Virus record (IMG/VR): IMGVR_UViG_2713896833_000003
Span: 1 to 14,385 of that record
Length of the DNA stretch: 14,385 nt
From: a virus
Taxonomy: Duplodnaviria; Heunggongvirae; Uroviricota; Caudoviricetes
Direction: 5' to 3' (one strand)
Positions 5,955 to 6,281 of the stretch are shown here, one piece after another (the first letter of the stretch is position 1; each line of letters starts with the position of its first letter). The notes below the pieces were generated by a model that was not told the DNA's origin, ran no database searches, and was given only the letters and a program-made list of their open reading frames with translations. The translations under genes were made by a program, and so were the position numbers.

Positions 5955-5958
<4 letters not shown>

Positions 5959-6281
5959 ACTTTCAGGCCCCTCTCATGTAACCAGTGGGCTGCACGCTGC
6001 CTGGCGTTTTCCTCACCGGCAAGCAGTGCGCGGATGATACCGACCGCCTCGCTGTCGTCGTCCTTCACCGCGGTATGAAGCGTGATCCCCCGGGCCACGC
6101 CACGCTTTATCGTGATGACGCCTTTTTTCTCCAGTGCGCGAAGATGCTCCACCGCTGCATTCACTGAACGGTATCCCAGCATGGTTGCCACCTCCTGATT
6201 GGTTGGCGGGAAGCCACGTTCTTTCTGGTAAGAAATCAGCATATCCAGCACCTGCTGCTGGCATTGAGTTAACGTCGTCAT
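5955..6281 (-). CDS. LexA N-terminal DNA-binding-domain-only protein (winged HTH, no S24 peptidase domain)
   Basis: LTQCQQQVLDMLISYQKERGFPPTNQEVATMLGYRSVNAAVEHLRALEKKGVITIKRGVARGI aligns closely to the E. coli LexA N-terminal domain ([55 protein letters not shown]); ATG at 6281 overlaps the upstream stop (TAATG); 108 aa. Confidence 0.7.

Follow-up and report, generated by a model that had tools for sequence, protein, structure and literature searches.

Why would a lambdoid prophage encode a LexA-type DNA-binding domain that has been parted from the peptidase domain of LexA, and what would such a protein bind? The question is raised by a small gene in a 14,385-nt stretch of viral DNA (IMG/VR record IMGVR_UViG_2713896833_000003, positions 1 to 14,385; the whole of this stretch is referred to as the window), which holds a CPS-53/e14-like lambdoid prophage. 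The gene and the features around it are the following:

8966–9658, plus strand: cI-type repressor with helix-turn-helix and S24 peptidase domains (profile match)
8608–8868, minus strand: Cro-like gene, head of the operon
8058–8615, minus strand: YmfL/CII-like gene, head of the operon
6772–7713, minus strand: O-like replication initiator, in the rightward (cro-side) operon
6281–6775, minus strand: YfdN-like PerC-family regulator, 164 aa (PF06069, E = 7.7e-10)
5955–6281, minus strand: 108-aa LexA-type DNA-binding-domain gene, ATG to TGA, 327 bp
5272–5958, minus strand: chimeric ORF, 228 aa, made of rusA codons 1 to about 70 with DUF968 and methyltransferase fragments

The initial annotation of the window had described a 108-aa protein at 5955–6281, coupled by TAATG and ATGA overlaps to a PerC-like regulator on one side and a RusA-like protein on the other, and most of this description holds. 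The minus-strand ORF and both overlaps can be read directly from the sequence: CATTA on the plus strand at 6279–6283 (TAATG on the coding strand) joins the stop of the yfdN-like gene to the start of the 108-aa gene, and TCAT at 5955–5958 (ATGA on the coding strand) joins its stop to the start of the next ORF. An alternative 119-aa ORF opens at a GTG at 6314; homologues and RefSeq start at the ATG at 6281, which has a Shine-Dalgarno-like G-rich stretch 5–9 nt to its 5' side. Translational coupling of the gene within the cro-side operon of the mobile element is thereby supported. The PerC-family match of the upstream neighbour agrees with the earlier description, but that of the downstream neighbour has to be narrowed, as the start of rusA is present and only about 70 of its codons remain, fused to DUF968 and methyltransferase fragments.

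The fusion reflects the history of the prophage. Its rusA is identical to that of Escherichia coli KKa014 for about 70 codons before running into DUF968/methyltransferase fragments, while in intact relatives the order is 108-aa gene, rusA, KilA-N or pRha+ANT, DUF968, Q, DNA methyltransferase and lysis genes. The EcoRII restriction-modification genes and the PD-T4-3 GIY-YIG gene that adjoin the chimera are about 30 kb away in KKa014, at the other prophage end. The jump within rusA and the meeting of genes that are about 30 kb apart in KKa014 thus indicate that the prophage of the window is a defective deletion derivative from which about 29 kb including Q, lysis and structural genes have been lost. 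The 108-aa gene has a conserved position in the PR operon, where it follows cro, the cII-like gene and the replication gene, and this operon is expected to be silenced by cI until the repressor is cleaved upon SOS induction. The opposite side of the immunity region carries yfdQ/R/S/T-like genes and the integrase.

Two further observations concern other parts of the window. The prophage end carries defence cargo (1728–5356), comprising the EcoRII endonuclease (1728–2942), a Dcm-type methylase with an N-terminal DNA_meth_N domain (2977–4452, minus strand) and the PD-T4-3 GIY-YIG protein (4817–5356; PADLOC E = 2e-99). Upstream in the operon, two minus-strand ORFs overlap in different frames, one at 7723–8061 (112 aa, a full-length match to phrog_1170) and one at 7703–7924 (73 aa, Pfam DUF4222, E = 1.7e-19), the latter being the one annotated by RefSeq; it is likely that at most one of them is real over the shared stretch.

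The domain identity of the 108-aa protein is clear. Residues 1–65 match positions 1–65 of the 65-position Pfam profile LexA_DNA_bind (PF01726, E = 2.9e-19), and the score of 69.1 bits against a cutoff of 23.7 places the protein within the family. The match to NCBIfam TIGR00498, which describes true LexA, reaches 71.2 bits, below the equivalog cutoff of 110.95, and covers profile positions 1–92 of 203 only. No Peptidase_S24 domain was found in the Pfam profile search of the protein, whose chain ends at residue 108. Among sequences in the PDB its best relative is E. coli LexA (1lea, 1jhh and 3jso; phmmer E of about 1e-16), with about 50% identity to the N-terminal domain over 68 residues. AlphaFold2, run on an alignment of 19 family sequences, gives a model (mean pLDDT 85.7) with helices at residues 6–22, 28–35 and 40–52, a two-strand wing at 56–68, a low-confidence linker at 71–74 and two further helices at 72–88 and 93–103, and the protein can be divided accordingly:

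residues 1–68: winged helix-turn-helix
residues 69–74: flexible linker
residues 75–104: two amphipathic tail helices

The first 68 residues of the predicted model superpose on LexA of the LexA–DNA complex 3jso at 0.9 Å (Foldseek probability 1.00). The profile and structure comparisons that the initial annotation had proposed thus bear out its view of a LexA paralog consisting of the DNA-binding domain only. The winged helix-turn-helix fold is common to both proteins, but E. coli LexA has an S24 peptidase/dimerisation domain and the 108-aa protein does not, which leaves it with neither self-cleavage nor a LexA-type dimer. Since it lacks this domain, the protein, judged by its domain content, cannot be inactivated by RecA-stimulated self-cleavage.

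What the protein might bind can be approached through the residues with which LexA touches DNA. PMC13416735, citing Knegtel 1995, lists five DNA-binding residues of E. coli LexA, namely Ser39, Asn41, Ala42, Glu44 and Glu45, and the contact of Asn41 with DNA is also described in PMC5999292. Conservation of these residues, another comparison proposed earlier, is substantial but incomplete: Ser39, Asn41, Ala42 and Glu45 are identical in the 108-aa protein, amounting to four of the five listed contacts, but Glu44 is replaced by Val. The wing residues Arg64-Gly65 of E. coli LexA are also kept, and Arg28 and Ser60 differ between the two proteins. With four of the five contacts retained, binding to SOS-box-like sites is plausible; because Glu44 is Val and Arg28 and Ser60 differ, the specificity may have shifted relative to LexA. 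Ser39, Asn41, Ala42 and Glu45 are kept across the close family and mostly also in distant members, although Ala42, Ala43 and Glu45 have all changed in one member (P0086). Position 44 of the recognition helix varies within the family, as does position 45 in some members. Such variation would suit a phage-specific regulator that acts on operators of its own, distinct from SOS boxes, and times the early/nin or late genes, so that the LexA fold would be a matter of ancestry only; the match of the four contacts and of Arg64-Gly65 to E. coli LexA speaks against this alternative, to which we return below.

The initial annotation had regarded the C-terminal tail as unique and had suggested that it might serve as a partner interface. 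The tail is not unique, as the same length and pattern are found in homologues at 35–48% identity (P0123, P0126–P0128, P0136, P0149, P0160, P0172, P0202, P0243, P0250 and mEp390 gp43), with conserved positions at Glu78, the hydrophobic residues 79/80, 82/83 and 86/87, Arg84, Ala93, Ala97, Trp/Phe100 and Leu101. The idea of an interface fares better, for a conserved module of two amphipathic helices with conserved hydrophobic stripes fits that role, even though it is not particular to this copy. A second model, with an mEp390-type protein (44% identical) as target, has the same architecture, and the two tail helices are predicted with high confidence in both homologues. Foldseek searches against the PDB and viral structures returned no specific match for the tail beyond the winged-helix part, and a weak Pfam match to NIL (E = 0.0067) was dismissed as noise.

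The start of the tail aligns with the hinge and cleavage-site stretch of LexA (ALLAGEE against RVAAGEP in LexA), so that A88-G89 of the 108-aa protein falls on A84-G85 of LexA. We considered whether this AG pair might be a retained site for trans-cleavage by an S24 peptidase, which is unlikely: the pair is lost in distant family members, and the segment is predicted to be helical, in contrast to the beta-strand loop of the cleavage region in E. coli LexA. In lacking a C-terminal domain, the 108-aa protein resembles the N-terminal fragment (residues 1–84) that RecA-stimulated autocleavage releases from LexA. The isolated N-terminal domain of LexA is reported to keep some ability to bind SOS boxes and to repress, provided that it is not removed by ClpXP (PMC10584840 and references therein). 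The cleavage fragment displays a recognition signal for ClpX and is degraded, whereas the 108-aa protein ends in ...ERGLKV and carries the additional two-helix module. Because of this different end and the extra module, we infer that the protein may, unlike the cleavage fragment, be stable and dimeric.

Some relatives in the databases (P0132, P0133, P0148, P0152, P0153 and P0156; 140–350 aa) carry two tandem LexA-type DNA-binding domains per chain, which could be a covalent-dimer answer to the missing dimerisation domain.

The gene is not peculiar to the window. The protein is 100% identical to a "LexA family transcriptional regulator" of E. coli KKa014 in RefSeq, where the family has the entries WP_032330051 and WP_000210154, and it matches phrog_362 over its full length including the tail (E = 1.5e-59, residues 1–108 on positions 1–106 of 106). 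It corresponds to orf42 of SfV and shares 95–98% identity with the proteins of SfV, SfII, cdtI and mEp460; further carriers are SfIV, Ayreon, 1720a-02 and many Stx2a, Stx2c and Stx2k phages. Across the SfV orf42, phrog_362 and RefSeq family (95–100% identity), the gene has the same position between a PerC-like or dam gene and rusA. Nothing of substance sets the copy in the window apart from this family; only its prophage has been deleted downstream. The 327-bp gene is present at a minimum of 95% identity in 2233 of 5426 complete E. coli genomes (41%), in up to four copies per genome. As a sequence the gene is thus already known, having been annotated in RefSeq, PHROGs and phage records since SfV, where it appears as "LexA DNA binding domain protein", "LexA-like protein" or "transcriptional repressor". 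In the literature searched we found no functional study of the family, and no support there for SOS-box binding or for a change in SOS expression by the protein. PADLOC gave no meaningful defence-system match for it, the sole match being CARF3 (E = 3.6e-4, 18 bits).

More distant relatives are numerous. An exhaustive HMMER search among 1.84 billion representatives yielded 4617 matches, many of them short stand-alone LexA-type domains, and BFVD holds many viral stand-alone LexA-type proteins of 70–150 aa. That such domains are common in unrelated phages, and that PHROGs labels phrog_362 with nothing beyond "transcriptional repressor", would both be in keeping with a regulator dedicated to phage operators.

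Selection on the gene was assessed among copies from E. coli, Salmonella and Citrobacter (Nei-Gojobori). The ratio dN/dS is 0.09–0.14 overall, 0.04–0.08 in the DNA-binding domain (residues 1–70) and 0.06–0.29 in the tail (residues 71–108). The low ratios in both parts indicate that domain and tail alike are under purifying selection and that the gene is no relic. One might have supposed, from a defective prophage with about 29 kb deleted and a truncated rusA, that the gene is a decaying and functionless remnant of a captured lexA. However, the ORF is intact and has identical counterparts in intact phages, the gene persists in 41% of complete E. coli genomes as well as in inducible phages, and decay is contradicted by dN/dS of about 0.1 in domain and tail; we therefore regard this explanation as extremely improbable.

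The conserved neighbourhood raises another possibility, that the protein acts together with RusA or in recombination or replication, for example by targeting or modulating the Holliday-junction resolvase. In 11 of 12 loci, members of the family (44–98% identity) immediately precede rusA and overlap it by 4 bp. The two genes do, however, occur apart: in ST64B dam is followed directly by rusA and the 108-aa gene is missing, and Klebsiella phage ST846-OXA48phi9.1 has the gene, near dinI, without rusA. Moreover, lambdoid modules normally keep their gene order, and in the window it is rusA that is truncated and the 108-aa gene that is intact. A role tied to RusA thus appears quite unlikely.

In ST846-OXA48phi9.1 the homologue (L009, 1–969) is 40% identical and lies two genes downstream of the phage dinI; a cargo operon, situated between Q and the holin gene, is preceded in the same locus by a strong SOS box (3994–4013). 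The gene that follows rusA in intact relatives encodes a pRha+ANT or KilA-N protein (L004 6722–7441, L005 6732–7448, L002 6574–7371), an architecture that is also that of Listeria AriS, an SOS inhibitor.

We then turned to candidate target sites. SOS boxes were scanned for with a position weight matrix (PWM) derived from 21 SOS boxes of E. coli, and the feature found in the repressor gene is the following:

9175–9194, in the linker codons of cI: near-consensus SOS box TACTGTATGTAAAAACAGTA, PWM score 25.8

This score lies inside the range of the sites from which the matrix was made, and only 0.01 matches scoring at least 20 are expected per shuffled window. The SOS-box-like site that the initial annotation had seen in cI is therefore a strong one, and it is conserved: the same box occurs at the same position of cI in ST64B, phiNP and a metagenomic relative (L010 28520–28539, L011 35267–35286 and L004 836–855), whose cI proteins share 68–84% identity. 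Across these boxes TACTGTAT...CAGT is invariant amid varying neighbouring linker codons, which points to selection on the DNA site itself. The box may be a site for host LexA and conceivably also for the 108-aa protein, and its function could be that of an intragenic LexA-controlled promoter or of a roadblock. Further along cI, an in-frame GTG at 9215 is preceded by GAGGA and could start a protein consisting of the C-terminal domain only.

A second strong and conserved SOS box lies in codons 3–9 of the N6_N4 DNA methyltransferase gene between Q and the holin gene, in SfV (orf48 type), two E. coli prophages, Salmonella and Citrobacter relatives and phiNP (L003 9907–9926, L001 6817–6836, L002 3098–3117, L012 8904–8923, L013 10165–10184, L011 27271–27290). 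This suggests that the methyltransferase is a LexA-controlled cargo gene in intact relatives; the region has been deleted from the window. Within the defence cargo of the window, an SOS-box-like sequence ATCTGGATATTTAAACAGTG (4475–4494, PWM 18.2) precedes the start codon of the EcoRII methylase by 23 bp; it could be bound by LexA, or by the methylase as an operator of its own gene.

Could the box inside its own cI be the dedicated target of the protein, giving feedback on repressor synthesis, as had been suggested at the outset? In favour are the strength of the box and the presence of the 108-aa gene in all 13 records of the phage collection whose cI is identical by 96% or more. Likewise, the methyltransferase gene with the box occurs in 29 phage records, of which all but phiNP have the 108-aa gene. 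However, near-identical Stx2c phages make up 15 of these co-occurrence records, and about 4 kb separate the genes, because of which we treat the co-occurrence as confounded by close kinship. Direct searches found no homologue of the 108-aa gene in ST64B or phiNP, which nevertheless have the box at the same position of cI; many carriers have other cI types without it (L001, SfV, L005–L008); and host LexA suffices as a ligand. The proposed link between gene and cI box is weakened accordingly, and a dedicated cI target is, in our estimate, very unlikely.

A wider dependence of the gene on phage SOS boxes was rejected too, as the cI box (ST64B, phiNP) and the methyltransferase box (phiNP) both occur without the gene. 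Conversely, the PWM scan detected no SOS box within 10–12 kb around the gene in the carriers mEp390, L005–L008 and L014. Boxes in phages that lack the gene and carriers that lack boxes together argue that host LexA explains the phage SOS boxes, independently of the 108-aa gene. The many carriers without a box near the gene also favour the phage-specific regulator described above. Against it stand the conserved LexA contacts and the fact that no alternative conserved operator came to light, and we consider that explanation possible but somewhat unlikely.

The reading that we prefer, though tentatively and at rather less than an even chance, is that the 108-aa protein is a RecA-insensitive binder of SOS-box-type sites, dimerised through its tail, which re-represses LexA-controlled promoters in the course of prophage development. 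We infer the sites it binds, its dimerisation and its influence on SOS from sequence and predicted structure. As the gene lies in the rightward operon repressed by cI, its product is expected only after derepression, cI holding this early operon silent until then. Derepression would typically mean SOS, when host LexA and cI would already have been cleaved, and the protein, having no S24 domain, would escape the same fate. Since most LexA base contacts are kept and S24 is absent, binding to CTGT-type (SOS-box-like) sites would be its most likely activity, probably as a dimer through the helical tail. Repression would thereby be re-imposed on LexA-controlled host promoters, on LexA-controlled cargo of the phage or on rival LexA-controlled elements. 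In a non-lytic remnant such as the prophage of the window, re-repression would occur in cells that survive.

Phage proteins that interfere with the SOS response are known from other systems. AriS of Listeria phage phi10403S (ANT/KilAC), made early in the lytic cycle, shuts down SOS (PMC9043618) and resembles the proposed role in being an early lytic gene that damps the response of the host; however, its fold and mechanism are unrelated, and it is no LexA-type DNA binder. The small phage protein gp7 of GIL01 acts on the LexA/SOS-box system (PMC4551915), but it does so by binding host LexA and has no LexA DNA-binding domain, whereas the 108-aa protein is itself a LexA-type DNA-binding domain.

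As a sequence feature the 108-aa gene is ordinary, and its value lies in a hypothesis that is cheap and clearly testable. In its boldest form, which we hold to be rather unlikely, about 40% of E. coli strains would hold prophages that, induced or cryptic, make a RecA-proof surrogate of LexA, and this would close the SOS regulon again while RecA is still active. If so, the SOS functions of the host would be cut off, and rival elements under LexA control, among them antirepressor-controlled prophages, colicins and cargo genes, would be silenced; in a non-lytic remnant, the surrogate would amount to a prophage-encoded negative feedback on host SOS. The gene is found in Stx2-, Cdt- and serotype-converting phages, and if its product binds SOS boxes, prophage derepression would switch on a non-cleavable SOS repressor in many pathogenic strains. 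The consequences would extend to Stx phage induction, antibiotic-induced mutagenesis and the competition between prophages.
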